64,000 nt of DNA, taken from NCBI GenBank assembly GCA_964526985.1, contig CAZGNJ010000004.1:94618-158617 (forward strand), read 5' to 3'. The notes under the pieces were generated by a model. The model saw only the letters and a list, made by a program, of their open reading frames with translations. It ran no database searches and was not told where the DNA came from. Position numbers and translations under genes: made by a program. Source of the stretch: an uncultured Ginsengibacter sp. Its GTDB lineage: Bacteria; Bacteroidota; Bacteroidia; Chitinophagales; Chitinophagaceae. Shown here one piece after another: positions 22,474-40,122 of this stretch. How positions within the stretch are numbered: position 1 is the stretch's first letter; each line of letters opens with the position of its first letter.

Positions 22474-23790
22474 TCAATTGCTGAGTGCACTATCCAATAT
22501 TTTCCTAATTTGCACTAAATCCTCATTACCGGAACTACGGAAAATAATTTTACCCCCTGGATTTAAAAGAATGTAGGTAGGATACGCCTGGACTAAAAAC
22601 CTTACTGAAGTAAGCGTATCTATTTTATCACCTGTTGCCGGTTGGTAGATTAAATGCCATGGAATTCCATGTTCTTTCTCAAACACTGCGAACTTTTCTT
22701 TATTGTCTTCGTGTTCAACAGCTATACTTGCCATGCTAAAATTAGAATTGCTGCTAAATCTTTCATAGATTTTTTTTAACTCTGGAATCGCTTCAATGCA
22801 GGGCTTACACCAAGATCCCATAAAATCTAATAATACATATTTCCCTTTATTTCGGTTTGTTGAAAATACATGCCCTCTGGTATCAATATGGTACATCATT
22901 GGTGCAGAAAGACCAATATCACCACCTGCGGCTGTAGATGAAACCGATGTCAGAAAAGCTTTGCTCAAATCAGGAGCTACAGAATCCACCTTGTAAAATT
23001 CATGCCTGCTCAGGAAGGGGTCATGCAGCTTATAATATTTATCATTATTTATACTATCTATTGTTCCAGCATAAAATGTAGAATAGCCGGTAAACCTGGA
23101 GATAGGTATCTGGTTGCTGATATATAAAAACCCGCCATCAGGCAATTTTGCCTTCCATATATTATCACCGGATATCAGAATGTAAAGATTCTCTTCCTGA
23201 GGATCAGGGTAGGTTATGTTTACCAATTTTGATGGGTGGAAATATAAATTCTGAGTTTCTTGATAAATTTTCCCTTGATAAAAATATTCGAGAGTTGGGT
23301 TTATATTAATAGCTGCTTTAAACTTGTTGGGATAATTTTTTAGTGAATCAATATTAAAAGAGAAAACCGAGTCGTCCTCAAAATTTTTATCGTTGTTGCA
23401 ATCGAAGATATAAAAGCGATTATTTCCTTTTCTATAAATCAATATGCCTATACTGCTATTTACAGATGATTTTGAAAGAGACAGGGTGTCGAGCCTGAAT
23501 AAATTAATCCATTTTAATAATTTAATTTTTTTTTCCTTACCAAGCAGATAATTCGAATATAATGTTTGCTCAGGCTGAATATCGTACAGCTTGATAACAT
23601 AGTTGCTATCTATGCTGGATGGTATTTTATACATGCCCCGATCATTTTCAAGTTTCTGAACACCCATATAACTCCACAAATTATTAAAGGATGACACCTG
23701 CCTTAAAGGAACACAAAACGTATTCTGTGATTGAGAACTGGATGTGAAAAATATCTGGAGAAATACTATTACAACACGTGACTTTAACAT
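22474..23790 (-). CDS. TlpA/ResA-family thiol-disulfide oxidoreductase with an uncharacterised N-terminal region
   Basis: Signal peptide-like start; DCNNDKNFEDD (Ca-binding-like); KGKYVLLDFMGSWCKPC; QAYPTYILL cis-Pro loop. Confidence 0.88.
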   Translation of the reverse strand: MLKSRVVIVFLQIFFTSSSQSQNTFCVPLRQVSSFNNLWSYMGVQKLENDRGMYKIPSSIDSNYVIKLYDIQPEQTLYSNYLLGKEKKIKLLKWINLFRLDTLSLSKSSVNSSIGILIYRKGNNRFYIFDCNNDKNFEDDSVFSFNIDSLKNYPNKFKAAININPTLEYFYQGKIYQETQNLYFHPSKLVNITYPDPQEENLYILISGDNIWKAKLPDGGFLYISNQIPISRFTGYSTFYAGTIDSINNDKYYKLHDPFLSRHEFYKVDSVAPDLSKAFLTSVSSTAAGGDIGLSAPMMYHIDTRGHVFSTNRNKGKYVLLDFMGSWCKPCIEAIPELKKIYERFSSNSNFSMASIAVEHEDNKEKFAVFEKEHGIPWHLIYQPATGDKIDTLTSVRFLVQAYPTYILLNPGGKIIFRSSGNEDLVQIRKILDSALSN

Positions 23791-23859
23791 ACTATATAAA
23801 TACCTATTTATCTTATATTGAAATACCTTAAAGAAAAATACAATGATAGTTTCTTCATA

Positions 23860-24209
23860 TTACACATCGACATGTCCCCTGCTTCCGCAAACACTGTCAT
23901 TTACACATCTGGTTATATTGCCATCACAAATAACTGCTACAACAAAACTATAATCCGCTCCCCCGTTTTCATCTTTGCAATATCTCGTTTTACAATCAGA
24001 GCCACTACAGCTAACAGTAAGCAATCCTGTTTTACATTTAACGGAAATTGAGCAGCCTTCTCCCCCACTTCCACTTTGACAAAATCCATTTACACATATT
24101 TGCCCGGGAGGGCAATCTGCATCGTTCATACATGGACCCCAAGACCACTTGTTACATTTTGTCGTTCGGTTTTACTAAGACTTCTGCCTAATTTTTTCTG
24201 TTGTTTCAT
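23860..24209 (-). pseudogene. Cys-rich peptide precursor with a double-glycine-type leader, split by a 1-nt frameshift at a G4 run (24137-24140)
   Basis: ATG at 24209 gives MKQQKKLGRSLSKTERQNVTSGLGVHV*; adding one G gives ...VTSGLGGPC fused to the 89-aa ORF MNDADCPPGQICVNGFC...; 12 Cys in the restored core. Confidence 0.75.
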
Positions 24210-24227
24210 TTTTTTAAATTTTTAAGA

Positions 24228-25841
24228 TTAAAAGAAATATATGATGTCCTTGAGTTCATACATTCTTGGTAATTCATATCCGTCAACAAAACAGGTCGGG
24301 GTATATCTAATATTCATCTTTTCGCACCAGCTACTCATAGCCTCCAGTTCCTTCCCAAATAACAGCAAATTTTCTTCGATGGGGTAACGTTGCTCAAATG
24401 TAGCATAATTCCTTCTTTCCGCGCCATACCAATCCTTCAACGCGGCCTCGACAATTCTTTTGTCCTTGAGATTATTTAAAGCCATGAAATGTTTGACAGG
24501 AGCAGCCTTTATATCCTTCTCACTATTTTCTGCTGTAAAAATAATTTGAAGCTTAATGTCCGGATTCGCTTCCAATATTTCTTCAATATCCCTATGGGCT
24601 TTTGCGCAGGGACCACAATATGGATTACACACCTTAACTAAAGTATGCTTAGCGTCCGGATTCCCTATCATAATACCTAACCCTGCTGTTGGTTCACTTA
24701 TTTTCCTTTGACTTTGAAGAATAGAATGAAATACCTGAGGATGATACTTTAACCTGGCAGCTTCTTTTTTATAATTACCGGCACTTCTCGCTTTTCTCAA
24801 AAGAGGTTTTAAAAATCCCCCGATTAAAAGAGGAAAAATAAAGGAAATAAATACCGATATAAATAAAGACATATTAAAAGACGAAAGAGGTATCAGATAT
24901 GGGGTATTGGCGTTATAACACACAACCATTTGTGACATTAATATGACCTGTACGGTAATGCACAAATGACACCACTGTCTTACTTACCATTGATAAGTTA
25001 CGGAATAAATAACAAAGGGAAGAGCTACGACGTTTAACCACGAAAAAAGAGGCATTGATAACCCGGGCTGCCCAAAAAAAGACAATAAAAAAATAAACTC
25101 TCCTGTAAAATACAAAAACCCTATTTCACTCCAACCAATTACCCCGAAAAGCTTTGCTGCTTTAGAATCTAAAATTGCGTTACAACCGGCATTTTTTTCC
25201 GAAGTGCAAAATTGCTGCAATACTGTATTGTCGTGAGTAATCCCAGTCCACGATAATATACCACTTATAATAACGCCTAAAAAAGTTAAAAACATTAAGA
25301 TACCCGGCCATAAACCGCCCGCATCGAAATTAATTACCCCATATAACAAGACCGCTACAAAACCGAACCCTAATGAGATAGGAATGTAATTTCTACGCCA
25401 AAATTCTTCTCTTCTCTTTTTATCATATTCCGGTTCACCAGCATCTGGCTCAGGATAAGGCAACAAAACGATACGGCTCCATTCTTTAAAAAAATCTTCT
25501 CGGCTCTTTGTTTTTGCCTTTCCTCCATTATCCAGATACGTAATATCTGTTTTGATATCAGTTACTACAAAAAAATACCCGCCGCTATCATCTGTATAGG
25601 CAATGAACGGAACTGGTAAATCGTTCAATCTATTTTCTTCTACCTCTATACAAGCATTATTAATTTTCCATTTCCTGAGACTGTCGCTTATGCTATCCAA
25701 ACTTGGAAAAAAAGGGTGATTCTCTAATGTTTCCTCAACAGTAGAAGCCGTAACATTTATAGATAAGCTGTTAATTAAATTTACCGTTACGGCTGATACA
25801 TTCGATTTTTGAGAAGGATAAAAGACTTTTTTCAAGAGCAT
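24228..25841 (-). pseudogene. C39-like domain / VKOR / thioredoxin (DsbA-like) fusion interrupted by an in-frame TAA at 24984-24986
   Basis: The two ORFs share a frame: YQW*VRQWCHLCITVQ; N-terminal HPFFPSLDSISDSL and LPVPFIA (C39-like); VKOR loop pair CTSEKNAGC..S; VKOR CxxC (CHLC); thioredoxin NPYCGPCAKAH and YTPT. Confidence 0.85.
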
Positions 25842-25957
25842 AAAAGAAAATCTTTTAAAATTACATCCTGGCTAAAACTGTAAAATCCACACAATTCATT
25901 TTCACTGCTTATAAAGTTAACTATTTCAACTGTAACCGAAACCTGACAGATTAATTA

Positions 25958-27145
25958 TCACTTCATTATCTCATCAATTTTTTCATAAATAGCTTCATCT
26001 TCTCCCACATACCTTGCAACGATATCCCCTTTTGGATCTATGATGATCTTCGTAGGAAACCCTGCGACGCTGTATTTGAGAATCAGATCATCATCGGGCC
26101 TGCTGAGTACCTGGTGCCATTGATAATCCTTATTCTTATCAAGAAACCTTCTCCAATTTGTGCCGTCATCAGATTCCTGTGCTATGCCAACGATTGTCAT
26201 TTTGCTTTTGTACTTGTCAAAGTATTCTTTCATTTTCGGCATACCGGATACGCAAGGCCCACACCAAGTACCCCAGAAATCCAGGACAACATATTTCCCT
26301 TTTAATGATGATAAATCAAATTGCTTTTTATCATAGGTGTGCATCGATTTTATCTCCGGTGCAGGTTTGCCGATAGCCGTAGCTCTCAGTCCCTCAATAC
26401 GTTTTACTACCTCAATGAAAAAAGGATTGGTATTGAGTTTCTTGTGATCCATTTTGTCGTACAGCGAAAATGATTCTTCTTTTGTAACCTGCGTTCTCAG
26501 CATCATATCGCCTAACAGCCATGCAGACGCGTAAGAGGAGGGATTGTCTTTGATAAAATTCTTTTTGATTTGGTCAACTTCCGCATCCAATGCATCCGCT
26601 TTCGCTTGCATCGACTTCATTTCAACCGTATCTTTAAATTGCTTTTTGGCAATCTTTACAGCCAGGTTAACACTTTCATTCATCAACGGATACACTGCTT
26701 TATTTAACCTTGCGAGGTCATTATTTGCCGGATCCCCTGACGGGTATGCATCTACGAAATCCGTGATCTTTCCGGTGATTTTCACGTGTGCACCGGGATA
26801 GACGATACATTGAAACTGGGAAGACTTTGCAGGAAAGTATCCACGATCAACTCTTTTCATCACGCTTTCGTTGGGAGGCCAGAAATTCAGCATTTTCATC
26901 TCATCAATTTTGCGGCTGTAAGTAAAGGCTCCATCCCTCACAATTGCAGAATCTCTTACAGTCGTTCCACTTTTGTTTTTGTAGAAAAAACGAATGGGTT
27001 TGGATTCGAGTCCGTCAATCTTTCCTGAAATCGTGAAGGTGCCTTCCTGCGCAAAGAGGGATGGGGAAAAGGCCAGCAGCAAAATGGTCAATAAATTTTT
27101 CATGATTACACTTGTTTTATGTTGTTTTTTGTTCCAAAATTTCAC
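25958..27145 (-). CDS. DUF4369-type N-terminal domain plus TlpA disulfide reductase (likely start 27103)
   Basis: Signal peptide; FTISGKIDG..DSAIVRDGAFTY; LKGKYVVLDFWGTWCGPC; AGFPTKIIID. Confidence 0.92.
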   Translation of the reverse strand: MKFWNKKQHKTSVIMKNLLTILLLAFSPSLFAQEGTFTISGKIDGLESKPIRFFYKNKSGTTVRDSAIVRDGAFTYSRKIDEMKMLNFWPPNESVMKRVDRGYFPAKSSQFQCIVYPGAHVKITGKITDFVDAYPSGDPANNDLARLNKAVYPLMNESVNLAVKIAKKQFKDTVEMKSMQAKADALDAEVDQIKKNFIKDNPSSYASAWLLGDMMLRTQVTKEESFSLYDKMDHKKLNTNPFFIEVVKRIEGLRATAIGKPAPEIKSMHTYDKKQFDLSSLKGKYVVLDFWGTWCGPCVSGMPKMKEYFDKYKSKMTIVGIAQESDDGTNWRRFLDKNKDYQWHQVLSRPDDDLILKYSVAGFPTKIIIDPKGDIVARYVGEDEAIYEKIDEIMK

Positions 27146-27167
27146 GTTCTCACTGTAAACACCTTTA

Positions 27168-28703
27168 TTATGAGTGTGCCATCACTATTTCGATCATATT
27201 CTTCAGTACATCCTCATTGTGTTCATCTGTCCTGAAATTCTTGTAGATGATTCTTCCATCTTTATCCAGCAGGTAATTGGTTGGCGCACCGATGTATCCC
27301 ATATTTCCTCTTTCACGCCCTTTAAAATCTTCAAGCGGGACAAAAGTATAGCCACTGTGCTGCATGAATGGAATTACATAATCATTCTGGCTGGCTTCAA
27401 TATTGATCCCGATATACTCCAGATTTTTACCTTTGAACTGATCCACCACATTCTGGAAGTGCGGAAATTCACCCCTGCACGGTCCGCATCCCGGAAACCA
27501 ATAAGTAAGCAACACTACTTGTCCTTTCAGGTCATCCAATGACATTTTACTATTCGCAGGATACCTGTTGAGGGAGAACGATGTTGCTTTTTGTGCAGCC
27601 TTGTCAAGGATCGTCCACGTTTCATTACTGACTTCGTTCTTATTTTTATTCAACAACGCACCATAAGCATATACCTGTTCTTTGATCTTGTCGGATGGAT
27701 TGACTGCATAATAATTCAACAACATATCGTAGGCATCATTCAGCCTGTTGTTTTCCTTATATGCCTGTGCTTTCAGAATCAAGAAATCCTGTTTTGCATC
27801 CATTCGCTTATTTAATTGAATCGTGTCCAATATTTTAATCGCATCACCATACTGTCCAGCCTGCATCAACTCCTTTGCTTTCTCAATATTAAGTGCCCAG
27901 TTCAATTGCTTTGCCCACATTGCCTTGCTTTTCTCATCTTTGGAACCATCCAGTACTTCCTTCGCAAGAGAAGCAGCCTTCTTTGTTTGTGGCATTAATA
28001 CCAGGTCGTAAAATGATTCCTTCATATAATCACCTATACTTGTAAGAGGGTATTTCTCTTTCAATAGCTCATAAAATTTGACACGTGTATCAAAATTTTT
28101 ACTTGCTAATGCCACAATGGAAATAGCTGTTTTTGTACGATCACTGTTTGGAAATTTCTTTACCATATCTAAAACGAGTGCTTCCCTTCTGGCTGGGTCA
28201 TCATCGAAGGACAAAGCATAGTAAAATGCATAGTCAGGATCTTCGGGTGCGATCTCCTTTGCTTTGCGCAGATATTCAAAGCCTTCTTTAAATTTCCCCC
28301 AGCGGTCTGCATCGATCCATAATTCAAAATAGGCTTTGTCCATCTTTGGATTTAGTTCGAGTGCCTTTAGCAAGTAAGGTTTTGCGGCAGGGCTTTCTTT
28401 GGACCAGTAAGCATTTCCCAATGCAAAAGGTAAAATGGCCGATTTCGGATATTGCTTCATCCATTTCTTATACTGTTCAACGAATGCCGGATCATCCTTG
28501 GCACCATATTTACCAAAACCAGTGGCTTCCAAATAACGCTCGTGAAGGCCGATGTTGTCTGGATCCTTTGAAATAGAATCTGCAATTTTTTTCATCAGTA
28601 CAGGATCTGATTGTGAATTTTTATCAGTCTGTGCAATAGATGCCTGCCTACCGCTTACTAAAAAAAGTAATGGCAACAAAATGGTCTTAAGAAATAATTT
28701 CAT
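27168..28703 (-). CDS. TPR-repeat plus TlpA-like redoxin, paralog 2
   Basis: Signal peptide; TPR helices (LLKALELNPKMDKAYF); VVLLTYWFPGCGPCRGEFPH; GAPTNYLLD. Confidence 0.9.
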   Translation of the reverse strand: MKLFLKTILLPLLFLVSGRQASIAQTDKNSQSDPVLMKKIADSISKDPDNIGLHERYLEATGFGKYGAKDDPAFVEQYKKWMKQYPKSAILPFALGNAYWSKESPAAKPYLLKALELNPKMDKAYFELWIDADRWGKFKEGFEYLRKAKEIAPEDPDYAFYYALSFDDDPARREALVLDMVKKFPNSDRTKTAISIVALASKNFDTRVKFYELLKEKYPLTSIGDYMKESFYDLVLMPQTKKAASLAKEVLDGSKDEKSKAMWAKQLNWALNIEKAKELMQAGQYGDAIKILDTIQLNKRMDAKQDFLILKAQAYKENNRLNDAYDMLLNYYAVNPSDKIKEQVYAYGALLNKNKNEVSNETWTILDKAAQKATSFSLNRYPANSKMSLDDLKGQVVLLTYWFPGCGPCRGEFPHFQNVVDQFKGKNLEYIGINIEASQNDYVIPFMQHSGYTFVPLEDFKGRERGNMGYIGAPTNYLLDKDGRIIYKNFRTDEHNEDVLKNMIEIVMAHS

Positions 28704-28821
28704 GGTATTCTAAATTTAATTTTTATTAATTCATTTTATTAATTTGAAGTGCAGTATTAGTATTGCGAAAAGATTATCTTTCATCCGGATTGACTGACAA
28801 TCAAATGCAAATAAGGTATTC

Positions 28822-28843
28822 AAAAAAGGGGCTTTCGCCCCTT
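28822..28843 (-). terminator. Rho-independent terminator inside the TlpA array
   Basis: Minus strand AAGGGGC-GAAA-GCCCCTT-TTTT (GNRA loop). Confidence 0.8.
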
Positions 28844-28886
28844 CATCACCTAAGGGAACACATGAGAAAACTTTTCCAAAAATTGA

Positions 28887-30014
28887 TTATTCAAATATTT
28901 CCTGCAACTTCTTTGACAACTCTTCCCCGCGTACATTTTTTGCAATGATCTTTCCTGATGGATCTATCAATAAATTCTGAGGGATGGCCCGGATCCCATA
29001 TTGCTTCGCAACAGCATTATCCCAAAACTTCAGATCACTTACATGATTCCACCACAATCCGTCTTTGTGAATTGCGTCTAACCATAACTGTTTCTTACCG
29101 GGCTGATCCAATGATACTCCGAGTATGGTAAAGTTTTTATCCTTGTATTGATTGAATGCCTTTACAACATTAGGGTTTTCAGCACGGCACGGGCCGCACC
29201 AGCTTGCCCAGAAATCTACCAGCACATATTTGCCTTTGAAATCCGAAAGCGATACAGGTTTGTCCAATGTATCGTTCTGTGTAAAGTTCATAGCCATGGC
29301 GCCCACTGCTGTCTTCTTCGCTATCTCGATCCGATCGTGCAGTGATTTACCTGAAAATGAATTTTTATTGGCTTCTGAAAGTCCCTTAAACAAAGGTTCA
29401 GCAACGGCCGGGTCTATATCATAGCCTACAAATTGATTCAGCAATGTCACTACAATCGGAGATGATGGATGTGACTGAATGTAAGGCTTCACTACCTTTT
29501 CATTCTTGTCTTTTACCATAGCCTCGTATTCATCCTGTATAGACTGCATACCCGCAAGGTCTTTTGCTTCCCTGAATTTATTGTACCTGGGGCCGAATGT
29601 CGCTTCCTGCTTGTCGTAAGGCTCCAGGAGTTTATTATAGGCTTCATATTCTTTCTGCGCTTTGGAGCCGGTTACTTTCGCAGACTCAAGAGAATCCTTA
29701 GCGATTACCTTGATGTTTCCAGCCTCGAGAAAGATATTCATATTTTCAGTCTTAGCTCTTTTCTCATTTTCCTTTTTGGGAAATCTGATGACAAGTGTAG
29801 CAAGTGTAGGCTCCTGTATTTTTCCTTTGAAGGCAAATACACCATTTTTTATATCAGCACTATCGGTGATTCTTTCATCACCGTTTCTGAAATAAAGCAG
29901 TGCTTTTTCTACCGGCTCTTTGAATGAGATTTTGCCGTTCAATTCAAAACTCTGTGCGTGCACATAAGAAAAGCCGGTGAAAAATAAGAGAAGGAATAAA
30001 ATGATCTTTTTCAT
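28887..30014 (-). CDS. DUF4369-type domain plus TlpA disulfide reductase
   Basis: Signal peptide; DSADIKNGVFAFKG; FKGKYVLVDFWASWCGPCRAENP; RAIPQNLLID. Confidence 0.94.
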   Translation of the reverse strand: MKKIILFLLLFFTGFSYVHAQSFELNGKISFKEPVEKALLYFRNGDERITDSADIKNGVFAFKGKIQEPTLATLVIRFPKKENEKRAKTENMNIFLEAGNIKVIAKDSLESAKVTGSKAQKEYEAYNKLLEPYDKQEATFGPRYNKFREAKDLAGMQSIQDEYEAMVKDKNEKVVKPYIQSHPSSPIVVTLLNQFVGYDIDPAVAEPLFKGLSEANKNSFSGKSLHDRIEIAKKTAVGAMAMNFTQNDTLDKPVSLSDFKGKYVLVDFWASWCGPCRAENPNVVKAFNQYKDKNFTILGVSLDQPGKKQLWLDAIHKDGLWWNHVSDLKFWDNAVAKQYGIRAIPQNLLIDPSGKIIAKNVRGEELSKKLQEIFE

Positions 30015-30061
30015 TTGTATTGATGTTTAGAATATTTTTTTTAAAATCAGATTCGTGGATT

Positions 30062-31687
30062 TTAATTCCCTTTGCTTTCCATTCCTCTCTCCAGCATTTG
30101 ATGTATCATGGCTTCCAATACATCCTCATTACTTCCATCAGTACGGATATTCTTAAACACAATTTTTCCATCCTGGTCTATCAGGAAATTCACCGGAGCT
30201 GCGCCGCCATTGTCTAAGTTGCCTTTCTTTCTTCCTTCAAAATCTTCCAATGGCAAAAATGTGTATCCGCTGGATTTCATGAATGGAATGACATAATCAT
30301 TTTGTTCCGGCACAATGTTGATACCTACATAAGCAAAATCTTTTCCTTTGAACTTATCCACTACATTCTGAAAATGCGGAAACTCTCCCCTGCATGGCCC
30401 GCAACCGGGAAACCAGTAAGTCAACAAAACCACTTTGCCTTTGAAATCAGAGAGCGATGTTTTTCCCTTAGTGAAATAATTGTTCAGCGTAAATGGTGTG
30501 GCAGTCTTTGCAAGTGTATCCCTGATCTCCCACACATCATTCATAACCTGCGATGCATTCCTCCCTAACTGTGCTCCATATTTTTTCAAATCCTGTCCAA
30601 TCTCTGTTTCGGGCGATTTAGCATAGCTGAACTTTAAATCATCGTAAGCTTTCTCTACATTTCCTGAAGCGGCGAGTGCATTCGACTTCAGCAAGAGGAC
30701 TATATCTCTCGCGCTGGAATACCTGCCAAACTTCATGCTGTCCATTATAGCGATAGCTTCATTGTATTTCTGCTGTTTCATCAGACCTTTTATCTCAACA
30801 AGATCTTTGGCAGTAGCAGCAGATTGTTCCCAGCTTTTCTTATCTCTGCCTTCCTTCGAGATGGTGACCATATAATCAGCAAGGCTTTCAGCTTTTTCTG
30901 GTGATTGCTTTTGCAACAGTTCAAAATAATTGTACATGCCTGATGACGACCATCCAAATTTCGAAGGTGGAAACTTGTTTTTCAGCATTTCAAAATACTT
31001 CACCTTATCAGCATTGTCCTGGCTTCTCACCGCCACCCAATATAATGCCTGTGCGCCTCTCTCACTATCCGGAAATTTATCGGCAACTGCTTCACTCAAT
31101 GTTACATACTTTGCAAAATCTTTATCATCCCATGTACCTGCATAATAAAAAGCATAGTTTGGGTCATCCGGTTTTATTTCGGATGCTTTCCTGATATATT
31201 CTGCCCCTTTATCAAATTCACCCCATCTTTCCGCATCTATCCACAGGTCAAAATATGCCTTATCAAATTTCGGATCTATTGCAATCGCTTTCAGCAACCA
31301 GGGCTTTGCTTTCGGACTTTCTTTGTCAGCATAGGCATTGCCAAGCGCGTAAGGAAGTGCTGCAACTTTAGGATACTTCTTCATCCACTTTTCATACTGA
31401 TTGCTAATGGCAGGATCATCCTTAGCACCCCACTTTGTGAATCCGGATGCTTTGAGATAAGCTTCATGCAGATCAAGATTCGAAGGATTTTTTTCAATGG
31501 CCATTTTCAGGCTATCCATTGTTTTTCGGGAATCATCCTGAGCCTGGGCATGAAGGCAACACAGCAATAGGCCGATCACCAATGTGCTAAAAACAATTTT
31601 TAAATTTTTCATCAAGATTAGTTTTTTTGTGAAGAAATTATAAGCAGCATGTTGGTAAGGAGTTGAATAATTCTTTACTAACATCAT
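30062..31687 (-). CDS. TPR-repeat plus TlpA-like redoxin, paralog 1 (likely start 31612)
   Basis: Signal peptide; TPRs; KGKVVLLTYWFPGCGPCRGEFPHFQNVVD; AAPVNFLID. Confidence 0.9.
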   Translation of the reverse strand: MMLVKNYSTPYQHAAYNFFTKKLILMKNLKIVFSTLVIGLLLCCLHAQAQDDSRKTMDSLKMAIEKNPSNLDLHEAYLKASGFTKWGAKDDPAISNQYEKWMKKYPKVAALPYALGNAYADKESPKAKPWLLKAIAIDPKFDKAYFDLWIDAERWGEFDKGAEYIRKASEIKPDDPNYAFYYAGTWDDKDFAKYVTLSEAVADKFPDSERGAQALYWVAVRSQDNADKVKYFEMLKNKFPPSKFGWSSSGMYNYFELLQKQSPEKAESLADYMVTISKEGRDKKSWEQSAATAKDLVEIKGLMKQQKYNEAIAIMDSMKFGRYSSARDIVLLLKSNALAASGNVEKAYDDLKFSYAKSPETEIGQDLKKYGAQLGRNASQVMNDVWEIRDTLAKTATPFTLNNYFTKGKTSLSDFKGKVVLLTYWFPGCGPCRGEFPHFQNVVDKFKGKDFAYVGINIVPEQNDYVIPFMKSSGYTFLPLEDFEGRKKGNLDNGGAAPVNFLIDQDGKIVFKNIRTDGSNEDVLEAMIHQMLERGMESKGN

Positions 31688-31745
31688 ACTGAAATTCCAA
31701 TAATTAAAATTGAGGTTATCATTATTTTTAATTCATCATTAAGTC

Positions 31746-32888
31746 CTATTTAATAATATCACCCAATCGCTTTAACAAGTATTCACCATGCAGGCCTCTT
31801 TCTATAATTTTACCTTGCGGATCAATCAGGAAGTTATCAGGAATAGGTTGGACACCATATAATTCCGCAACCTTATTCGGCGACTTCAAATCCGAAATAT
31901 GTGTCCAGTGTAATTGATCTTTGGTGATCGCTTGCTTCCAACTCTTACTATCCTGATCTACGGAAACACTAATGATTGTAAAATTCTTGTCCTTGAACTT
32001 TTCATAAGCAGCTTTTAAAAACGGGTTATCCTTGCGGCAGGGGACACACCAGCTTGCCCAAAAATCCAATAAAACATATTTGCCTTTATAATCAGAAAGA
32101 GTAACAGGTTTCTTATTTACGTCATTCATTGTGAAGTCAGGAGCAGTCGCTCCAATCACACTTCTTTTTCTTCCTTCTATTTTTGTTGGCAACTTTGAAA
32201 GTATGGCTAACTGCTTTACCTTGTCCCCGAGATTATTGTAGTACGTTTCCAGTTGGGATACAGGAATGTTATCTGCGATCAGCATTAACAGCATTCCGCT
32301 GGCAAAGGAGTTCGGATGCTCTGCCACAAATTCATTTTCAAATAGGGCGACAGAATCTGTAAGTGCCACAATTTCATTCATTAAATTTTTATATTCCACA
32401 GATGATTTGTCAGTAATCGTTGCAATTTTCTTTTGGAGAACACTCCTGCGATCATAGTAAATATTCATTTTGCTCATCGCGTAATTGTATTCATCATTGC
32501 CAGTAGTTCCGTTTACAATTGTATGTGTGAGGTCCTTATTGTTTCCATTGATTGTAATATCTCCCTTTTCAATTAAGAAAGTGAAATTTCCATTTGTTGA
32601 CCTTCCGGCTGTTGTCTGGGCCCATACAAAGGAGGGGATAGACGCCGTACCCTTATAATGAAAATGATCATTTTTTGTAGGAATAATAATCATCTCCCGC
32701 TTTTGATTTTCGGAAAAGACACTCAGGAAAAGTGTATCATTATTCATCCCTTTTATCTGTCCTTTGATGGTATAGTTAAAGGAGGTTTGTCCGAAAACTG
32801 TTCCACCCAGTGTCAGACAGATTATTACTAGCAAAACTCTTAATTGCAAAAAGATCGAGACGAATCCAAAATTGACATTTAAAACCAT
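31746..32888 (-). CDS. DUF4369-type domain plus TlpA disulfide reductase
   Basis: YTIKGQIKG; IGATAPDFTMND; YKGKYVLLDFWASWCVPCRKDNP; QPIPDNFLID. Confidence 0.93.
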   Translation of the reverse strand: MVLNVNFGFVSIFLQLRVLLVIICLTLGGTVFGQTSFNYTIKGQIKGMNNDTLFLSVFSENQKREMIIIPTKNDHFHYKGTASIPSFVWAQTTAGRSTNGNFTFLIEKGDITINGNNKDLTHTIVNGTTGNDEYNYAMSKMNIYYDRRSVLQKKIATITDKSSVEYKNLMNEIVALTDSVALFENEFVAEHPNSFASGMLLMLIADNIPVSQLETYYNNLGDKVKQLAILSKLPTKIEGRKRSVIGATAPDFTMNDVNKKPVTLSDYKGKYVLLDFWASWCVPCRKDNPFLKAAYEKFKDKNFTIISVSVDQDSKSWKQAITKDQLHWTHISDLKSPNKVAELYGVQPIPDNFLIDPQGKIIERGLHGEYLLKRLGDIIK

Positions 32889-33050
32889 TTCTGTTATTAA
32901 TTAATAATTCTAAGGGATTATGCTCTAATAAGAATCATCCTTTTCAGATATTCGCGTCATACACTCGAACTATTCCGGCTTAAAGGGATGGATTTTTAAA
33001 GTAGCTTCCACCCCTTCCTTTCCTAAAGAGCACATTTTATTACTAAGATC

Positions 33051-34604
33051 CTAATAACTATTTTGTTCAATCACACCCTGGCTACTGATAATTTCAGTAC
33101 GAGGAATCGGTGTAGCATATCTTTTTGAATTCTTATCCAGCGTATAAGTAATTGGAGCCTGGTTTGCCTGCACACTTGATGCAGTGAATGGATAAAAAGT
33201 CTTGGTCACTACTACATCATCATTCGGATCATCATTATTGTTGATCCTGCGCAGATCGAACCAGCGCATAGTGAAAGGCATCTCTCTTCTTCTCTCTTCC
33301 AAAATAATTTTGATGGCTACATCTTTTGATTCAGCAGTGAGCGCCGGAGTACCTGTTTTCATTCTCTTGACACGAAGCATATTCAATGCAGACATAGCAC
33401 CAGGCACATCACCTGTACGTGCAAGGCACTCTGCTTTGATCAGGTACATTTCTGCAGTGGTAGGCCCGCTTGGTACCCTGTCTTTGAAAAAGAAGATATA
33501 ACCCGGATAGCTATAGGACGGTTTTACCATACCCCGGTCGTAAGAGTAATCTTCTACTATGTGATACTGATATCTGAGGTCATTGTCTTTATCATAGAGA
33601 TCGAGCAATTCCTGACTTGGCACATACCACCAATAACCGAAGTTCAACATTCTAAAGTACAGAAATTCTTTCCATCCGATCATATCAGTTACAGCTATCT
33701 GGTTGTCGTGGGTATAAGGATACTTTAAGGTTACCGTTTGCTGCTGTGGGGTGCCAGCGTCAACAGTTACTGACCTATCCCTCCCATAATACATTTCCGT
33801 ATTGTAATCTACGAGAACGTTATACTTGTCAAGAGCCGCGTTAGCGTATTTGAGCGCTTCCGTATAGTTATTTCTTTGCAAGTAATACCTGGCTGCAAAT
33901 CCATTCACTGCTGCGGTATTGGCTCTCCAGTTTCGGTTCACGCCATTTTGAACAAGTGCCACGTTTATCTTTAAAGCTTCAGCCAGGTCGGACTCTATCA
34001 GATCATACACTTCAGAAAGGGGCACTCTCTTCACATTCTCTTCAAAACTTACACTCTTTTTTAATGGGAGGCCAGGTGAATTTTTGTTAGCATCAGTATA
34101 AGGTAGGCAATAAGTATTGGCCAACTCAAAATAACTATATGCTCTGATAAAATGTGCATCTGCTCTTAAATTATCCTTATCAGTTGCCGGCCCTGAAACT
34201 TTGTCTAAGTTTGCTAAAACCATATTGGCTCTGAAAATTTTACCATATTCATCACTCCAGAAGGTACCGTTGTATCTATCATCTGAGATGAAATCATTCT
34301 CCCAAAACGCATACTGCGCTAATGGTACAGGGAAAATTCCCGGGTTGGCATTGTATAAGTCGAGAGCCAGGCCATAATCATCTGTACTGAGCATGGCTGT
34401 AAGGTTAGACTCTGAGTAAAATGAAGCATAATTGTTGAGAAGCGCATTCAACTGCTGCGTGGTAGTCACCACTAACGAAGTGGTTTTTGAAGGCTTCTCA
34501 TCAAGAAATTTCTTACACGACTGCGTGGTTATAACGAGCACAGCAACCATTGAGATGTTGAAAATATTTGAAATATTTTTTTTGAATGTGTTATACATGT
34601 TCAA
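33051..34604 (-). CDS. RagB/SusD family outer-membrane lipoprotein
   Basis: Lipobox TQSC followed by KKFLDEKP; WSDEYGKIFRAN; AHFIRAYSYFEL; EMYLIKAEC; EERRRE..RWFDLRR; directly after SusC. Confidence 0.93.
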   Translation of the reverse strand: MNMYNTFKKNISNIFNISMVAVLVITTQSCKKFLDEKPSKTTSLVVTTTQQLNALLNNYASFYSESNLTAMLSTDDYGLALDLYNANPGIFPVPLAQYAFWENDFISDDRYNGTFWSDEYGKIFRANMVLANLDKVSGPATDKDNLRADAHFIRAYSYFELANTYCLPYTDANKNSPGLPLKKSVSFEENVKRVPLSEVYDLIESDLAEALKINVALVQNGVNRNWRANTAAVNGFAARYYLQRNNYTEALKYANAALDKYNVLVDYNTEMYYGRDRSVTVDAGTPQQQTVTLKYPYTHDNQIAVTDMIGWKEFLYFRMLNFGYWWYVPSQELLDLYDKDNDLRYQYHIVEDYSYDRGMVKPSYSYPGYIFFFKDRVPSGPTTAEMYLIKAECLARTGDVPGAMSALNMLRVKRMKTGTPALTAESKDVAIKIILEERRREMPFTMRWFDLRRINNNDDPNDDVVVTKTFYPFTASSVQANQAPITYTLDKNSKRYATPIPRTEIISSQGVIEQNSY

Positions 34605-34610
34605 ATAGAT

Positions 34611-37600
34611 TTAAAAGGTGAATCTTGCGCCGAAAGTGTACTGAGGCATTGGTTTCATAAATCCTTTGGGATACTCCGGATCTTCGCCATATTTGTTGGC
34701 AAGGACAGTGAACAGGTTATTTCCCTGTGCATAGACTTTGAAATCACCCTTCATGCGAATTTTTTCCAGCAATCGGTGAGGAATGTTGTAGGTCAGGTTC
34801 ACTTCCTGCATTCTCAGGTGGGAAGCGCTTTGTACCAGATAGCTCATGAACGGATAGAAACGATCCCAGAAGTAAAACCTGCCTTCATCCTGGTTGAGGG
34901 GGAGTGGAACTACCTTATTCGGATCTCCATTCATTACTTCTGAGATTGCACTGTTAGGTAATACCCGGGTTGTCCACAAAGGAGGATAATTGAATGACAT
35001 CCTGTTAAACACATGGCCGAACTTGCCGGTAATAATGAATGAAAAGTCAAAATCATAAATCTTGAATTGGCTGGTAAATCCAAACCCGTAAGGTGCCACA
35101 GTAGTCCCCATATCAAGTAAGTAGTCGCGCCCATCGCCAGGTGTCCATGTTGAAAAGTCATATACATCTTTCCCTGAGCCTTTTACTGTAGGTTCTTTGT
35201 CGGACTCCCTGATTCCTGCATATTGAAAAGCCCAAAGCGTATTGGCGTTCTTGCCTTCAACATAGGCGGAAGTTCCTCCATAAAAGAGCGAGTAGGCAGC
35301 GTAGTTAGCTACAAACAGTTTGGTGATCTTATTACTGTTGTAGGAAAAGTTCATACTTCCCCGCCATACAATATCATTTCCTTTCAGTCTCGTTGTAGTA
35401 CCAAGGGTCAATTCAACTCCCCTGTTCGCCATCTCTGCATTGTTCAATTTTTGAGATGTGGTACCATTTGCTGCAGGAATTGAAATGACAGCAATCAAAT
35501 CTTTTCCTTGCTTATTATAAACATCCAGTTTTCCAAATAACTTGTTATTCAGCATACCAAAATCGATACCCAGATCCCAGGTTCCGGTACGCTCCCAGCG
35601 AAGAGTCGGGTTTCCAAAGCTTGAAATGGTTGCAGTAATATCTCCTGTATAAACATTGGGACTGGAACCCATAGAAATGAGTGGACGGAATGCAGTTGAT
35701 TTGTCAACATTACCGTTGTACCCATAAGTCAAACGAACACGCAGCATATCCAACCAGTTAGCACTTTTCATAAAATCTTCCCTTAGTATATTCCATCCTG
35801 CACCTATGCTCCAGAAGGGTTCATACCTGTATTTGGGATCATCGGTGATCAGGTTGGAAGCATCTGTTCTGGCACTACCTGAAATGGTATATTTCTTATT
35901 GAAGGTATAGGCAAGGTTGCCATATAAGGAGAAGTACCTGTCTGTCCTGTACGAAAAAGAATTTGTGTAGGAAAAGTTCTGAGTAAAACCCTGCCAATCG
36001 ATCAATCGATTTACTCCGCCCGGGCCATTTGGAAAATTTCCAACGGTTAATGTTTCGTCATTGTATCCGTAGGTAACAGGATATCCATTCGTTTGAGAAA
36101 CGATATTATTAATTTCCGAACCTGCAACAAGAGTAACCTCATGTTTGCCGGCAAATTCCCTGTTGAAGTTCAACTGATTTCTGAAATTGTACGCGTTCAC
36201 ATTCTGCCTGCTCTGGGTAAGGATACCTCCCATCGGTAGATTACGTGTAAATTTATTTGCAGCAGGATCCCACGTAGTGCTTTGATTCACTGTTTGCCTT
36301 ACATAAAATGTCTGGTCATTATACAATCCCCTGTTATCATAGGATATATACTCATACTGCAATTTACTGTCAAAACTTAATCCCCTTATGATATGAAATG
36401 TCAACCCACCCTGCAATCTCATATTGATTTGTTTGGTAGTAAGATTCCTGTTCCTCATTTCCTGCACGGGATTGTACGCCCAATTTGCATAAGGAAATTT
36501 ATCCATAGGCACATATCGCACCATCGCAGGCCAATAATACCGGTTGATATTGGTGTAGTTACCATCATTATCCAACAACATATCATAGGGAGCCAGCCCT
36601 TGAATATCATCTAATGACACACCACTATTGTGAATGTCATTGAACTGTACCATACCGTTTAGATTGAAATCAAGCCACTTGAAAACTCTCGCAGAAGAAC
36701 GATAGTTCAACATGTAGCGGTTGTTGTAAGTCCTGGTAAAGTTGGATTGATTGGTTTCATAGAGCAACGAAAACATGTTGCTCATGCGTTCACTACCACC
36801 ATAGAGTGTCAGGTTCACTTGCGTACTTGCCGGATTGGAAAGTAATAAATCAGAGATTTGTTTTTTATTGCTTAATCCTCTGAGTTTGTCCAGTTCTGTA
36901 TTCATCTCAGATTCTGTGAGGAACCCGAGATTGTATTCATTGATAGCTGTCGAAGCCGGAGAATAAGCGAAAAAAAAGTTATCAAGGCTTCCATTATTTA
37001 CAAGTGGGGACCAGTTCTTGCTAAAGAGGAGTTTTTCATAGTCAACAGTCTGAGAAGAGGATGCCAGAGGATTTACATAATCCAAATCAAATTTTTGCCC
37101 AACTCTTCTGAATACATTCAGATCAATTTTCAATGGCATCCCATTCTTTGCTCTCTTTGTCGTGATTACAATTACGCCATTTGCAGACCTTGCTCCCCAG
37201 ATAGAGGCTGCTGCTGCATCTTTCAATATGGTTACACTTTCCACATCATTTGGATTGATAGAATTCAAATCACCTTGTATGGCAAATCCATCTACAACAA
37301 TCAATGGCTGTGCATTTGCATATAAGCTTGTTTGCCCACGAATCTCAAAAGTAGGATTGCCATTTACATCCACAGTCGCCTGTACGCCTGCGGCCTGCCC
37401 GATCAATCGTGAACCAATATTGGTAGATGGGTTGTCCAACTGCTGTGTGTTGATAACATCAAATGAACCTGTGGCTCTTTCCTTAGAAATTGTTTGATAA
37501 CCTGTGCTCGCTACAACTATTTCTTGTTGCTTCGTAATATCTATGGACAATTTCACATTGATTTGTGCACGCCCTTTTACAGCAATAGTTTGGGAAGAAT

Positions 37601-38156
37601 ATCCTACTCTCGAAAAAACCAATGAACTGTTATTGTCCACAACGATAGAATATGAACCATCTGCTCCGGTGCTGGTTCCCTGGTTCGTGCCTTTCACAAC
37701 AACACTTACTCCTTCAAGAGGGTTTCCTTCTTCATCAGTCACAATTCCTGTAATCCTGATGGGTGGGGATGGCAGTGGTTCACTCAACTCCATTAACCGA
37801 TTCTCAACCGGTTTGTTAATTATGGTTACAGTCCTGTTCTCCATAATCCATGCTAAAGGCTGATCTTTTAAGGCTAAATCCAGGGCCTCTGTAACTGATA
37901 CCCCTTTGACATCGATGGTTACAGGTTTTGCCTTTTGGATCAGTCCCTGATCATAAAAGAAAACGTACCCGGTCTGGTCTTTGATTTCCTTAAAGACTTT
38001 GGTTAAAGACAGATCCTTTCCTGAAATGCTCACCTTCTGCGCATTCGTTTTAGCAGAAACATTCAGGAATCCCAAAATCATAAAAATTATCACAAACTTC
38101 ATAGACAGAAGGATTTGCCGTGGTACCGGCGGAACCCGGTAATAAGAAAAATGCAT
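34611..38156 (-). CDS. SusC/RagA TonB-dependent transducer with an N-terminal STN signalling domain
   Basis: STN (QKVSISGKDLSL..IKDQTGYVFFY); CarboxypepD-like domain (GNPLEGVSVVVKGT); plug PLIVVDG, ILKDAAAASIWGARSANGVIVITTK; C-terminal Phe. Confidence 0.96.
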   Translation of the reverse strand: MHFSYYRVPPVPRQILLSMKFVIIFMILGFLNVSAKTNAQKVSISGKDLSLTKVFKEIKDQTGYVFFYDQGLIQKAKPVTIDVKGVSVTEALDLALKDQPLAWIMENRTVTIINKPVENRLMELSEPLPSPPIRITGIVTDEEGNPLEGVSVVVKGTNQGTSTGADGSYSIVVDNNSSLVFSRVGYSSQTIAVKGRAQINVKLSIDITKQQEIVVASTGYQTISKERATGSFDVINTQQLDNPSTNIGSRLIGQAAGVQATVDVNGNPTFEIRGQTSLYANAQPLIVVDGFAIQGDLNSINPNDVESVTILKDAAAASIWGARSANGVIVITTKRAKNGMPLKIDLNVFRRVGQKFDLDYVNPLASSSQTVDYEKLLFSKNWSPLVNNGSLDNFFFAYSPASTAINEYNLGFLTESEMNTELDKLRGLSNKKQISDLLLSNPASTQVNLTLYGGSERMSNMFSLLYETNQSNFTRTYNNRYMLNYRSSARVFKWLDFNLNGMVQFNDIHNSGVSLDDIQGLAPYDMLLDNDGNYTNINRYYWPAMVRYVPMDKFPYANWAYNPVQEMRNRNLTTKQINMRLQGGLTFHIIRGLSFDSKLQYEYISYDNRGLYNDQTFYVRQTVNQSTTWDPAANKFTRNLPMGGILTQSRQNVNAYNFRNQLNFNREFAGKHEVTLVAGSEINNIVSQTNGYPVTYGYNDETLTVGNFPNGPGGVNRLIDWQGFTQNFSYTNSFSYRTDRYFSLYGNLAYTFNKKYTISGSARTDASNLITDDPKYRYEPFWSIGAGWNILREDFMKSANWLDMLRVRLTYGYNGNVDKSTAFRPLISMGSSPNVYTGDITATISSFGNPTLRWERTGTWDLGIDFGMLNNKLFGKLDVYNKQGKDLIAVISIPAANGTTSQKLNNAEMANRGVELTLGTTTRLKGNDIVWRGSMNFSYNSNKITKLFVANYAAYSLFYGGTSAYVEGKNANTLWAFQYAGIRESDKEPTVKGSGKDVYDFSTWTPGDGRDYLLDMGTTVAPYGFGFTSQFKIYDFDFSFIITGKFGHVFNRMSFNYPPLWTTRVLPNSAISEVMNGDPNKVVPLPLNQDEGRFYFWDRFYPFMSYLVQSASHLRMQEVNLTYNIPHRLLEKIRMKGDFKVYAQGNNLFTVLANKYGEDPEYPKGFMKPMPQYTFGARFTF

Positions 38157-38217
38157 AGATTTGGTTTTTAGTTTGAAATGAATGATACTAGCAAGTTTTA
38201 TTTTATTTTGAACGCTG

Positions 38218-38242
38218 CCGGAAATGTTCGCTGCATTTCCGG
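38218..38242 (-). promoter_or_regulatory. Hairpin between fecR and susC
   Basis: CCGGAAATG-7nt-CATTTCCGG; no U-tract on the coding (minus) strand. Confidence 0.55.
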
Positions 38243-38263
38243 TTTTGTTTTTCTTTAAATCCT

Positions 38264-39478
38264 TTATGGTGATACAATGATCTTCTTACCTACAATATTG
38301 AAGTGAATATTATTCTTACTCAATAAATTCAACACTTGTGAGAGTGAAAGGTTCCTTTGCATTTCCCCTTCAAACCTCCGGTCAGGAATATCTCCCTGGT
38401 AAATGACATCCACATCGTACCACCGGCTCAATTGTTTCATCACCATTTCCACATCTGCATGCCTGAAGAAGAAGTATCCGTTTTTCCAGGCCATTACTTC
38501 ATCTAAGTTTACATCGTTTAAAACTACGATGCCCTTATTCTGATTACTTGTCACAGCCTGCTGCCCCGGAGTGATCCTGCTTTTCTTGCCTGATGATTCA
38601 ACCGCAACTGAGCCTTCCAACAGTGTAGTCCTTGTTTCTCCATCATATCCTTTGATATTAAAATGAGTACCCAGCACTCTCACATCCGTATTATTTGCAG
38701 TAACAAAAAATGGCTTTGAAGCATCATGTGCTACTTCGAAATACGCTTCGCCTGTCATGGATACCTTTCTGTCATCACCAACAAAGGCTGTCGGAAATGT
38801 GACTGATGACTCCGCATTCAGCCACACCTTACTTCCATCAGCCAATACCAGTTGATATTGTCCGCCGCGGGGTGTTGAAACTGTGTTATAGGAAACTGTT
38901 GTATTGGATGAGGATGATGAAAAATCATATTCTATCTTACCATCTTTCAGTTTGGTAACGGTTACATTGCCCTGTTTGGAGATAGCGCCATTGTTTGCTG
39001 AATCCAATAATATTTTTGTTCCGTCTGCCAGAGTAAGAACTGCTTTGTTACCCCCCGGAGCCACATCCTGTCCTGTATTGGCCATTGACTGAGTCTGAAT
39101 CCTATTTTGGGAAGTCTTATTCTGATAAAAATATCCAACCAGGAGTATCAGCGCTACCGAAGCTGCGGCTGCATAAGCAATGATTCTTCCATACCTGCGG
39201 CCAGGATGCATTACTACTACATTATCACCTAACTGCTTTTGTATTTTTTCCCAAATTATTCGCTCTTTACCTTCTGCCGGTGTTGCATGGCTAAGTGTGA
39301 TTTCATCCAGTATAGCTCTCGCTTTTCGTATTTCATCTGCTTTATCAGGATTGGCCTCCTCGTAAGCATTCCAGAATTTTTCATTTTCCGCATCAGGGAA
39401 CTTTACCCACGAAATAAAATGATCATCTACTACGAACTCTGCCGCAGTATAATGAGCATATTCTTTGATTCTTGCCAT
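38264..39478 (-). CDS. FecR-family anti-sigma factor
   Basis: FVVDDHFISWV; TM AAAASVAL; TPRGGQYQLVLADGSKVWLNAES; GEAYFEV; VLGTHFN; AWKNG. Confidence 0.95.
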   Translation of the reverse strand: MARIKEYAHYTAAEFVVDDHFISWVKFPDAENEKFWNAYEEANPDKADEIRKARAILDEITLSHATPAEGKERIIWEKIQKQLGDNVVVMHPGRRYGRIIAYAAAASVALILLVGYFYQNKTSQNRIQTQSMANTGQDVAPGGNKAVLTLADGTKILLDSANNGAISKQGNVTVTKLKDGKIEYDFSSSSSNTTVSYNTVSTPRGGQYQLVLADGSKVWLNAESSVTFPTAFVGDDRKVSMTGEAYFEVAHDASKPFFVTANNTDVRVLGTHFNIKGYDGETRTTLLEGSVAVESSGKKSRITPGQQAVTSNQNKGIVVLNDVNLDEVMAWKNGYFFFRHADVEMVMKQLSRWYDVDVIYQGDIPDRRFEGEMQRNLSLSQVLNLLSKNNIHFNIVGKKIIVSP

Positions 39479-39552
39479 AATTTTCCTATTCCTTGTTAAT
39501 AAATTGAGGAATCGATTCAGGAAAATGCCCCACTAAATGGCAACTTTTTTTT

Positions 39553-40122
39553 TCAGAAACTACCAATAAAGAAAATGTTGAACAATTTCGACCCTAAAAT
39601 CATGCGCAATGCAATGATAGACCTGGCAGCGAGCTTGTAGGTAGCTCTGGTCTGCATGTTCATAATCTCGGCAATATGGTCATAAGAGAGGCCTTCAAAA
39701 AAACGGTAATAGACTATTTCTCTTTGGCGTGGAGTGAGTTCTTCAAGAGCTTTATTTATCCTGGAGGAAATGGCAGATGAATTTTCTCCTTCTATAACTC
39801 TTTGTTCTATCGAAACATCAAAATCAAATCGCATCACCTCTTCTTTATATATAGTACGAGAGCGCTCCCGAAACAATTGAATGACCTGGTTTCTGTATGC
39901 ACGCAGGAGATATGCTTTTTCCGATTGCGGAGTTGACATCCTGGCTCTGTATTTCCAAAGATTCAGAAAGGTCTCTTGTATGGCATCTTCCACGAGGTCG
40001 ACATCTTTGCTCATGCGCAATCCATAATTGTACAGATCATTAAAATATTTCTTGTACAATGCTTCTAACGCAGTAGTATCATCATCTTTTATTCTATCCC
40101 AAATCGCATTGGCTTCAGCCAT
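39553..40122 (-). CDS. ECF sigma-70 factor (Bacteroidota expansion family)
   Basis: ALEALYKKY..LYNYG; DAIQETFLNLW; LTPRQREIVYYRFFEGLSYDHIAEIM. Confidence 0.95.
   Translation of the reverse strand: MAEANAIWDRIKDDDTTALEALYKKYFNDLYNYGLRMSKDVDLVEDAIQETFLNLWKYRARMSTPQSEKAYLLRAYRNQVIQLFRERSRTIYKEEVMRFDFDVSIEQRVIEGENSSAISSRINKALEELTPRQREIVYYRFFEGLSYDHIAEIMNMQTRATYKLAARSIIALRMILGSKLFNIFFIGSF

Follow-up and report, generated by a model that had tools for sequence, protein, structure and literature searches.

A decayed cassette for a Cys-rich peptide in an uncultured Ginsengibacter, with a broken oxidase fusion and an intact TlpA-type gene

Bacterial VKOR-thioredoxin fusions of the Synechococcus type have a Cys pair in a VKOR loop, a CxxC motif and a fused thioredoxin, on the periplasmic face. 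Polymorphic toxin-immunity cassettes have a constant N-terminal export part and a swappable core that moves with the next gene; they form tandem arrays, and orphan partners are found.

Bacteroidetocins are described as toxins with a double-glycine (GG) leader and Cys residues, encoded together with a transmembrane protein, a thiol oxidoreductase and an exporter (PMC6671954). Their target is reported to be BamA (PMC8546649).

The window analyzed here is a stretch of 64,000 nt from the genome of an uncultured Ginsengibacter. It contains the remains of a cassette in which a C39-like/VKOR/thioredoxin fusion is followed by a Cys-rich precursor and a TlpA-type gene. The cassette family resembles polymorphic toxin-immunity cassettes in all of the traits named above, but would have a small disulfide peptide as toxin and a redox enzyme as immunity factor. 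The closest known system is that of the bacteroidetocins (class IIf), which is also found in Bacteroidota and also combines a GG-leader Cys peptide with a membrane protein, a thiol oxidoreductase and a C39-ABC exporter. In contrast to that system as published, the cassette has a single C39-like/VKOR/thioredoxin fusion as its oxidase, hypervariable modular cores, and a TlpA-type gene for each core. It also lies outside the size and Cys range: the description of bacteroidetocins gives leaders of 15-16 aa and mature peptides of 42-48 aa with about 4 Cys (PMC6671954), compared to a 22-aa leader and a mature peptide of about 93 aa with 12 Cys in this cassette. No immunity gene was seen at bacteroidetocin loci, according to the same description.

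Our search of the open literature, which did not extend to subscription journals and supplements, found no description of a fusion-peptide-TlpA cassette. Three papers deal with neighboring GG-leader systems (PMC12219008, PMC8939145, PMC12457901), and the portions of them consulted do not describe this cassette; two others (PMC10352776, PMC4555120) contained no relevant terms. Taken by itself, the broken gene is an ordinary pseudogene, but it leads to a large and apparently undescribed family of disulfide-rich peptides with a portable oxidase. What is new here, at the level of sequence, is that the cores co-vary with the downstream TlpA-type gene and not with the oxidase, and that this gene is intact in an apparent non-producer.

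A frameshifted precursor with a two-module core

The initial annotation described an ORF starting at an ATG at 24209 (minus strand) and a Cys-rich core one base out of frame, and restored a 116-aa precursor by adding one G to a run of four. We found both parts. The ATG starts a 27-aa leader ORF, MKQQKKLGRSLSKTERQNVTSGLGVHV, that stops at 24126, and the core is in a different frame, which stays open between 24171 and 23860 (minus strand). The annotation of the first module and of the Gly linker also holds (Table 1). Joined with an X at the break, leader and core comprise 116 positions with 12 Cys, all of them in the core.

Table 1. Features of the decayed cassette, in window coordinates
Position	Strand	Feature	Basis or comparison
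24984..25841	-	N-terminal half of the broken oxidase fusion: C39-like domain (no catalytic Cys) and VKOR	Pfam C39 and VKOR; P0016
24984..24986	-	Premature stop (TAA), five codons ahead of the VKOR CxxC; fixed lesion	His at this position in P0016; same TAA in X4, X5 and X7 contigs
24228..24983	-	C-terminal half of the fusion, with the VKOR CxxC, two TM helices and a thioredoxin (CGPC); the CxxC contains the first usable start	Pfam
24126..24209	-	Leader ORF of 27 codons in its present form; residues 1-22 form a divergent leader of the double-glycine type, with ...NVTSG at its end	LGRSLSKTE common to the L085 leader
24137..24140	-	G4 run at the leader/core frameshift; fixed lesion	Intact relative P0002; same ungapped G4 in contigs of runs X4, X5 and X9
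24079..24132	-	Core module 1: 4 Cys, C-x5-C-x5-C-x4-C, mobile Cys-rich repeat-like unit	Weak Dickkopf_N/EB/Squash (Pfam) matches below cut-off
24055..24078	-	Gly/Ser linker QSGSGGEG	P0002 linker one residue shorter
23860..24054	-	Core module 2, with 8 Cys and a predicted beta-rich structure	P0056 has it alone, after a GG leader; AlphaFold2 pLDDT 71-88, residues 51-115
22474..23790	-	Intact 438-aa TlpA-type protein: variable N-domain and WCKPC thioredoxin; likely cognate partner	Family covariation

A search for intact leader-core relatives found P0002, a natural protein of 115 aa that belongs to the cluster of the window's 89-aa core ORF and is 86% identical to that ORF. P0002 aligned end to end with the window leader plus core over 116 columns, with all 12 Cys kept, and reads SGIGGPC across the position of the break. 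Thus, the one-base reconstruction was right. As a sequence comparison, the alignment could hardly arise by chance and confirms how the two frames join. A DNA search of 40 relatives gave only chance matches of 32-45 nt, P0002 had a single weak match, in a spurious frame, among 126 same-genus genomes, and metagenome scans with the window core and with P0056 (below) had no matches. A scan for promoters and terminators was at chance level.

The leader is of the double-glycine type and its signal is modest, as judged from scores against the family. On a matrix built from 61 family leaders it scored 12.9 bits, whereas none of 1000 shuffles exceeded 6.4; leave-one-out scores of the family leaders were 9.6-53.5 bits, which puts this leader among the weaker ones. 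With HMM scoring, 3 of 1000 shuffles reached the same score. The available LahT150 data give a rule of Leu-12, Glu-8 and a hydrophobic residue at -4, and indicate that Arg-7 and Ser-Gly are unfavorable or non-canonical (PMC6363468). In the register ending at G22, L11, E15 and V19 satisfy the rule, as in the double-glycine leaders of PCAT systems (LahT150; TIGR04149, NF047798). In contrast to those leaders, both the window leader and P0002 have Arg at -7 and Ser-Gly at -2/-1, with no Leu-7 and no GG, GA or GS in the main register, and so the leader departs from the canonical double-glycine type. Because P0002 has both, Arg-7 and Ser-Gly are older than the frameshift. A later GG, at residues 24-25 of P0002, is not accompanied by Leu-12 or a hydrophobic -4. 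Cleavage could occur after SG or after the GG three residues further on. The family leaders have G or A at -2, a feature partly built into the search pattern.

The leader had been likened to TIGR04149, and this was not supported. No NCBIfam model matched P0002 or the window leader ORF, and TIGR04149 gave no match to P0002 or the window ORFs at E values up to 10. Of 26 same-genus peptides, 25 had at least one weak NCBIfam match, mostly to NF047798 or TIGR04149, and one passed the TIGR04149 cut-off of 25 bits. There is no radical SAM/SPASM maturase near the precursor, where the neighbors (22474-34604) are of thioredoxin, VKOR and SusD types, and none of 11 window proteins scanned matched a radical SAM family.

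The core had been described as two-domain, and relatives bear this out. We searched 1.84 billion representative proteins with the core (phmmer) and obtained 62 matches. Most covered module 1, and most were repeats of it within long proteins. Five leader-bearing precursors (P0042, P0073, P0076, P0078 and P0085) have module 1 followed by differing C-terminal parts, and module 1 is also present in locus L043. P0056, in contrast, is a precursor in which a GG leader precedes module 2 only (61 aa aligned at 48% identity, with the same 8 Cys). Since module 1 is found before other C-terminal parts and module 2 alone, the precursor is a natural fusion in which a 4-Cys module is joined to an 8-Cys one.

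An AlphaFold2 model from 11 sequences had a mean pLDDT of 68 (71-88 in module 2) and was beta-rich; the single-sequence model of the core was unusable (pLDDT 45). No fold match to the 11-sequence model was significant (best Z 2.8), and module 2 had no clear match. The Cys spacing of module 1 is similar to that of the two-disulfide beta-hairpin sub-core of squash knottins, Dickkopf CRD1 and the myxobacterial Cys-rich repeat TIGR04201. Pfam and NCBIfam matches were below threshold, and none of the matches was significant: Foldseek aligned module 1 to 2po8 with an rmsd of 1.1 over 26 columns (E 0.99), and VIA-align aligned it to squash/knottin with Z 2.3 (rmsd 2.5, 28 aligned). Module 1 has four Cys, compared to the six of the knot, and therefore would not form one. 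The ESM Atlas yielded only leads of 0.78-0.79, to Bacteroidota clusters with a bacteriocin signal.

Lesions in the oxidase fusion, the precursor and the exporters

The neighboring VKOR fusion that the initial annotation pointed to is present upstream of the precursor, as a C39-like/VKOR/thioredoxin protein. What was overlooked is that a TAA breaks it, that both exporter genes of the genome are relics, and that a likely cognate partner is encoded by the TlpA-type gene downstream of the precursor. The closest relative of the fusion, P0016, is intact, 537 aa long and 76% identical, and in same-genus genomes most of the best matches to the fusion are in open frames of 537-596 codons. P0002 and P0016 are each found on one Logan contig of 7247 nt, probably the same one. 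From the gene context, the peptide is probably a client of the fusion.

The genome has two C39-ABC exporter genes. The one on contig C5 stops after 103 codons, and the one on contig C55 is frameshifted and shortened. We found no full-length C39-ABC exporter in the window or in the genome, which is 99% complete in 123 contigs and in which one could be unassembled. Among the orthologous sites tested genome-wide, 2 of 49 were broken; one was the C55 exporter and the other probably came from a spurious query. Based on these numbers, we infer that the decay is focused on the cassette pathway.

The cassette is a separate, probably acquired module, because GC3 of its three genes (22474-25841) is 0.27-0.36, compared to 0.38-0.45 in the flanks, and because the ECF/FecR/SusC/SusD block that lies upstream in the window is beside the fusion in 0 of 79 related loci. 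We rejected this block, with its higher GC, as part of the cassette.

We compared both lesions to contigs of four runs (X4, X5, X7 and X9, of 24 runs listed) from studies P2-P5, none of which is flagged as the source of the genome. The G4 run was bridged with no gap or mismatch in contigs of X4 (2017), X5 (2020) and X9 (2023). X7 also matched at the run and was not counted since it had only 29 letters on one side. The TAA was bridged identically in contigs of X4, X5 and X7. That is, each lesion was reproduced in three of four independent runs, in contigs of low depth (2.8-5.5) that can hide rare variants. Over 23500-25900 of the window, the matching contigs of the four studies, from 2017 to 2023 and from activated sludge and wastewater runs, had no differences, as in a near-clonal lineage.

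Three origins of the frameshift had been left open: pseudogenization, phase variation of the homopolymer, and an assembly error. It is extremely improbable that one or both lesions are assembly errors. The genome is metagenome-assembled, one lesion is at a homopolymer and the confirming contigs are shallow; against this, the same letters are found in contigs from studies P2, P3, P4 and P5, a homopolymer error cannot account for the TAA, and the truncated products recur on 3-4 contigs each in the protein collection. We rejected assembly error on the identical G4 in contigs from three other studies. A phase-variable switch or a programmed frameshift at the G run is very unlikely, and so is a leaderless core that acts in the cytoplasm. 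The lesion does sit in a homopolymer, and contigs drop rare variants. In addition, the TGA of the leader ORF overlaps an ATG of the core (ATGA at 24129-24126), so that a leaderless 89-aa core with 11 Cys could arise by translational coupling. However, a run of four is short and common (7003 G4/C4 runs in this genome), it was ungapped across three studies spanning six years, there is no X-XXY-YYZ slippery site on inspection, a dead oxidase and dead exporters would make a switch useless, and the leaderless product is missing the first Cys. We rejected phase variation on the ungapped G4 in those three studies. With assembly error refuted and phase variation unlikely, pseudogenization is left. Because the upstream fusion is dead and both exporter genes are relics, precursor, fusion and exporters together are a fixed, decayed cassette rather than a phase-variable one. 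Taken alone, loss of function in this strain is very probable.

The cassette family and its TlpA-type partners

At least 589 genome loci have the fusion, and we surveyed the best 79 of them; the named records are Bacteroidota, mostly Chitinophagaceae. In 65 of the 79, a Cys-rich precursor of the double-glycine type (at least 4 Cys, within 700 nt) comes right after the fusion, so the position that had been proposed for the peptide is conserved. The Cys count was even in 62 of 66 family precursors. The largest core among the 79 loci has 82 aa and 10 Cys, smaller than that of P0002 (93 aa, 12 Cys). An exporter was present in 25 of the 37 loci with 6 kb on both sides. There were 51 genes next after a peptide, and 18 of the 25 scanned were TlpA-type. 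Tandem peptide-TlpA units occur at seven loci (L047, L051, L053, L079, L086, L093 and L108), often alternating; the gene classes in the array count of 81 were 43 TlpA, 30 other, 5 peptide and 3 exporter. Two loci, L064 and L065, labeled Dyadobacter and Bacteroides and nearly identical, have the fusion followed by a probable glycosyltransferase, with the peptide lying 3.1 kb upstream; they may represent a glycocin-like variant.

The six redox Cys (loop pair, CxxC and thioredoxin), shared with the Synechococcus-type fusions, were invariant in 72 of 72 fusions, and there was no conserved Cys in the C39 catalytic region. The set consisted of fusions with an ATG ORF of 500 aa, which left out 8 loci, and helix bounds were set by hand. 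In contrast to the Synechococcus type, these fusions have an extra protease-dead C39-like domain, two extra helices and a predicted cytoplasmic face. Mean K/R counts over successive loops alternate (4.3/0.1/4.7/0.2/1.9/0.2/5.8), which places the loop Cys, the CxxC and the thioredoxin on the same side as the N-terminus. The redox cysteines are therefore predicted to face the cytoplasm.

We found that the similarity of cores tracks that of the downstream partner. Over 67 pairs, core similarity correlated with the non-thioredoxin region of the partner, controlling for VKOR (0.25, 0/999 permutations). After thinning of kin, 34 of 43 triples gave 0.31 for the core and the partner N-region, again controlling for VKOR (0/999 permutations). 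In these 34 triples, in which VKOR is as close to the peptide as the partner is and kin are not independent, the locus with the most similar core had a partner ranked in the top 3 in 19 cases, compared to 3 cases for VKOR (chance, about 3). With TlpA-type partners only, the value was 0.38 (0/1999, n=22), and 0.29 after strict thinning (35/1999, n=12). In contrast, VKOR did not track the core (0.04 and -0.05). Sequence comparison thus shows that core and partner move as a single unit, something that linkage alone could also produce. The thioredoxin domain of the partner co-varied with the core too (0.18 and 0.31). Covariation of leader and VKOR, 0.58, fell to -0.07 under strict thinning (n=12), and we rejected it as a sign of docking.

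Among 16 loci with a homologue of the window partner, a GG-type Cys peptide was directly upstream in 6 (L090, L130, L131, L155, L156 and L158) and not in the other 10, some of which have weak homologues. The cores upstream ranked 10, 12, 50 and 70 of 109 in similarity to module 2, and although the cores of L090 and L130 looked like module 2 by eye, this impression was discarded because in a shuffle test they were outside the top 7 of 106. The N-region of the window partner had no match among 999 candidates. The L131 core has the exact Cys spacing of module 1; its frame starts ATG-TAA, and an in-frame TTG might rescue it. This precursor (L131:5880-6100, genome G637) precedes an intact partner homologue, far from the intact fusions and exporter of that genome. 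In G1041, a module-2-like peptide found in an independent search is in the same cassette as a partner homologue, and in G479 there is a partner homologue and we found no fusion or exporter. The 90% protein cluster of the 22474-23790 product has unrelated-looking 55-aa proteins as representatives, probably a clustering artifact.

Possible functions of the cassette

We think there is an even chance that the intact form of this cassette makes a secreted, disulfide-stapled antibacterial peptide with the TlpA-type partner as immunity factor, and that this strain lost production and kept the partner. The protease-dead C39-like domain would keep the leader in the cytoplasm, where the fused VKOR/thioredoxin relay, predicted to face inward, would introduce as many as six disulfides into the two modules of the core. 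Removal of the leader and export of the peptide past the periplasm would then fall to a C39-ABC transporter with HlyD. The exported partner would recognize an incoming cognate peptide through its variable N-domain and reduce it with its CxxC. Core and partner would be swapped jointly behind a shared leader and oxidase. A strain that has lost oxidase, precursor and both exporters and still has the partner would be a resistant non-producer. The covariation of cores with the downstream TlpA-type gene and not with the oxidase suggests a toxin-immunity-like pairing, and on these sequence patterns the partner is likely an immunity factor.

Several observations count against a peptide toxin with a cognate immunity reductase. 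Core and partner are adjacent and linkage alone yields covariation, in which the partner's thioredoxin domain also takes part. Fewer than half of the partner homologues (6/16) have a peptide directly upstream, with cores only moderately like module 2, and the leader has no Leu-7 and no GG, GA or GS in the main register even in P0002. The partner gene may be intact only because no lesion has reached it so far, and with the genome in 123 contigs and a second fusion at the start of contig C86, an exporter could be unassembled. In addition, the thiol oxidoreductase of bacteroidetocins is reported as needed for activity and as giving no immunity (PMC6671954). The main rival is that, in the same decayed cassette, the partner acts as a receptor or as a foldase/isomerase dedicated to the peptide, which would mature outside the cytoplasm or serve as a signal rather than a toxin. 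We regard this as possible and rather unlikely. Glycocin clusters are described as having thioredoxin-like isomerases (PMC12457901), twelve Cys need isomerization, and covariation with the core is equally expected of a foldase. However, type I export bypasses the periplasm, where a TlpA-type protein with a signal peptide (judged by eye in the partner) would be. There are also partner homologues with no peptide, one of them (G479) with neither fusion nor exporter, and all three partner-type genes beside relics in this genome are intact. It is more doubtful still that the partner has a peptide-independent redox job in the envelope, that the pairing is linkage only, and that the precursor is no more than a pseudogene from a bacteriocin-like cassette. 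The 10 of 16 partner-homologue loci with no upstream peptide fit this notion, as do the five further TlpA genes in the SusC/D block of the window. However, VKOR is equally adjacent to the peptide and does not track the core, and arrays alternate one peptide with one distinct TlpA.

If the partner is indeed a cognate reductase acting as immunity factor for each core, this form of immunity would be chemically new. What deserves testing is the pairing of core and partner, and since P0016 and P0002 are a natural intact pair, the cassette can be tested with no repair. A leader-guided cytoplasmic disulfide catalyst that takes cores of 4 to 12 Cys would help in making disulfide-rich peptides. Somewhat short of an even chance, in our estimate, is a wider picture of a widespread polymorphic weapon of Bacteroidota. 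An inward-facing VKOR oxidase that docks the leader would staple any core behind a shared leader, Cys modules would swap and fuse (as in this 12-Cys core), a thioredoxin-type immunity enzyme that moves with each core would disarm it by reduction, and the sludge strain would be a cheater that no longer produces and keeps the antidotes.

Other regions of the genome and the window resemble parts of the cassette. Contig C86 opens, at 1-634, with the C-terminal half of a second VKOR fusion that runs off its start. On contig C55 (G000:C55:18950-23578), the broken exporter, with repetitive non-coding filler, is accompanied by an intact HlyD and by an intact 65-aa precursor with 6 Cys at the contig end; C55 and C86 may adjoin. 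C55 also has an HTH-like gene whose product ends in a leader-like LSANQLRKISGG. A similar small protein of the HTH-like kind is encoded downstream of the fusion in locus L012. It has the leader-like motif LTREEAAKVGG and a 2-Cys tail at its end, and may be a regulator that senses or mimics leaders. A second decayed cassette (G000:C5:49054-52118, L038 region) has a 66-aa peptide with 7 Cys and a leader ending in EG rather than GG, an intact TlpA gene, the 103-codon exporter stub and another intact TlpA gene. In the window, 25958-40122 (minus strand) encodes an ECF sigma factor, an FecR-like protein, SusC, SusD and five TlpA-type proteins with CxxC (three with DUF4369, two with TPR), a SusC/D locus with thioredoxins where glycoside hydrolases would be.
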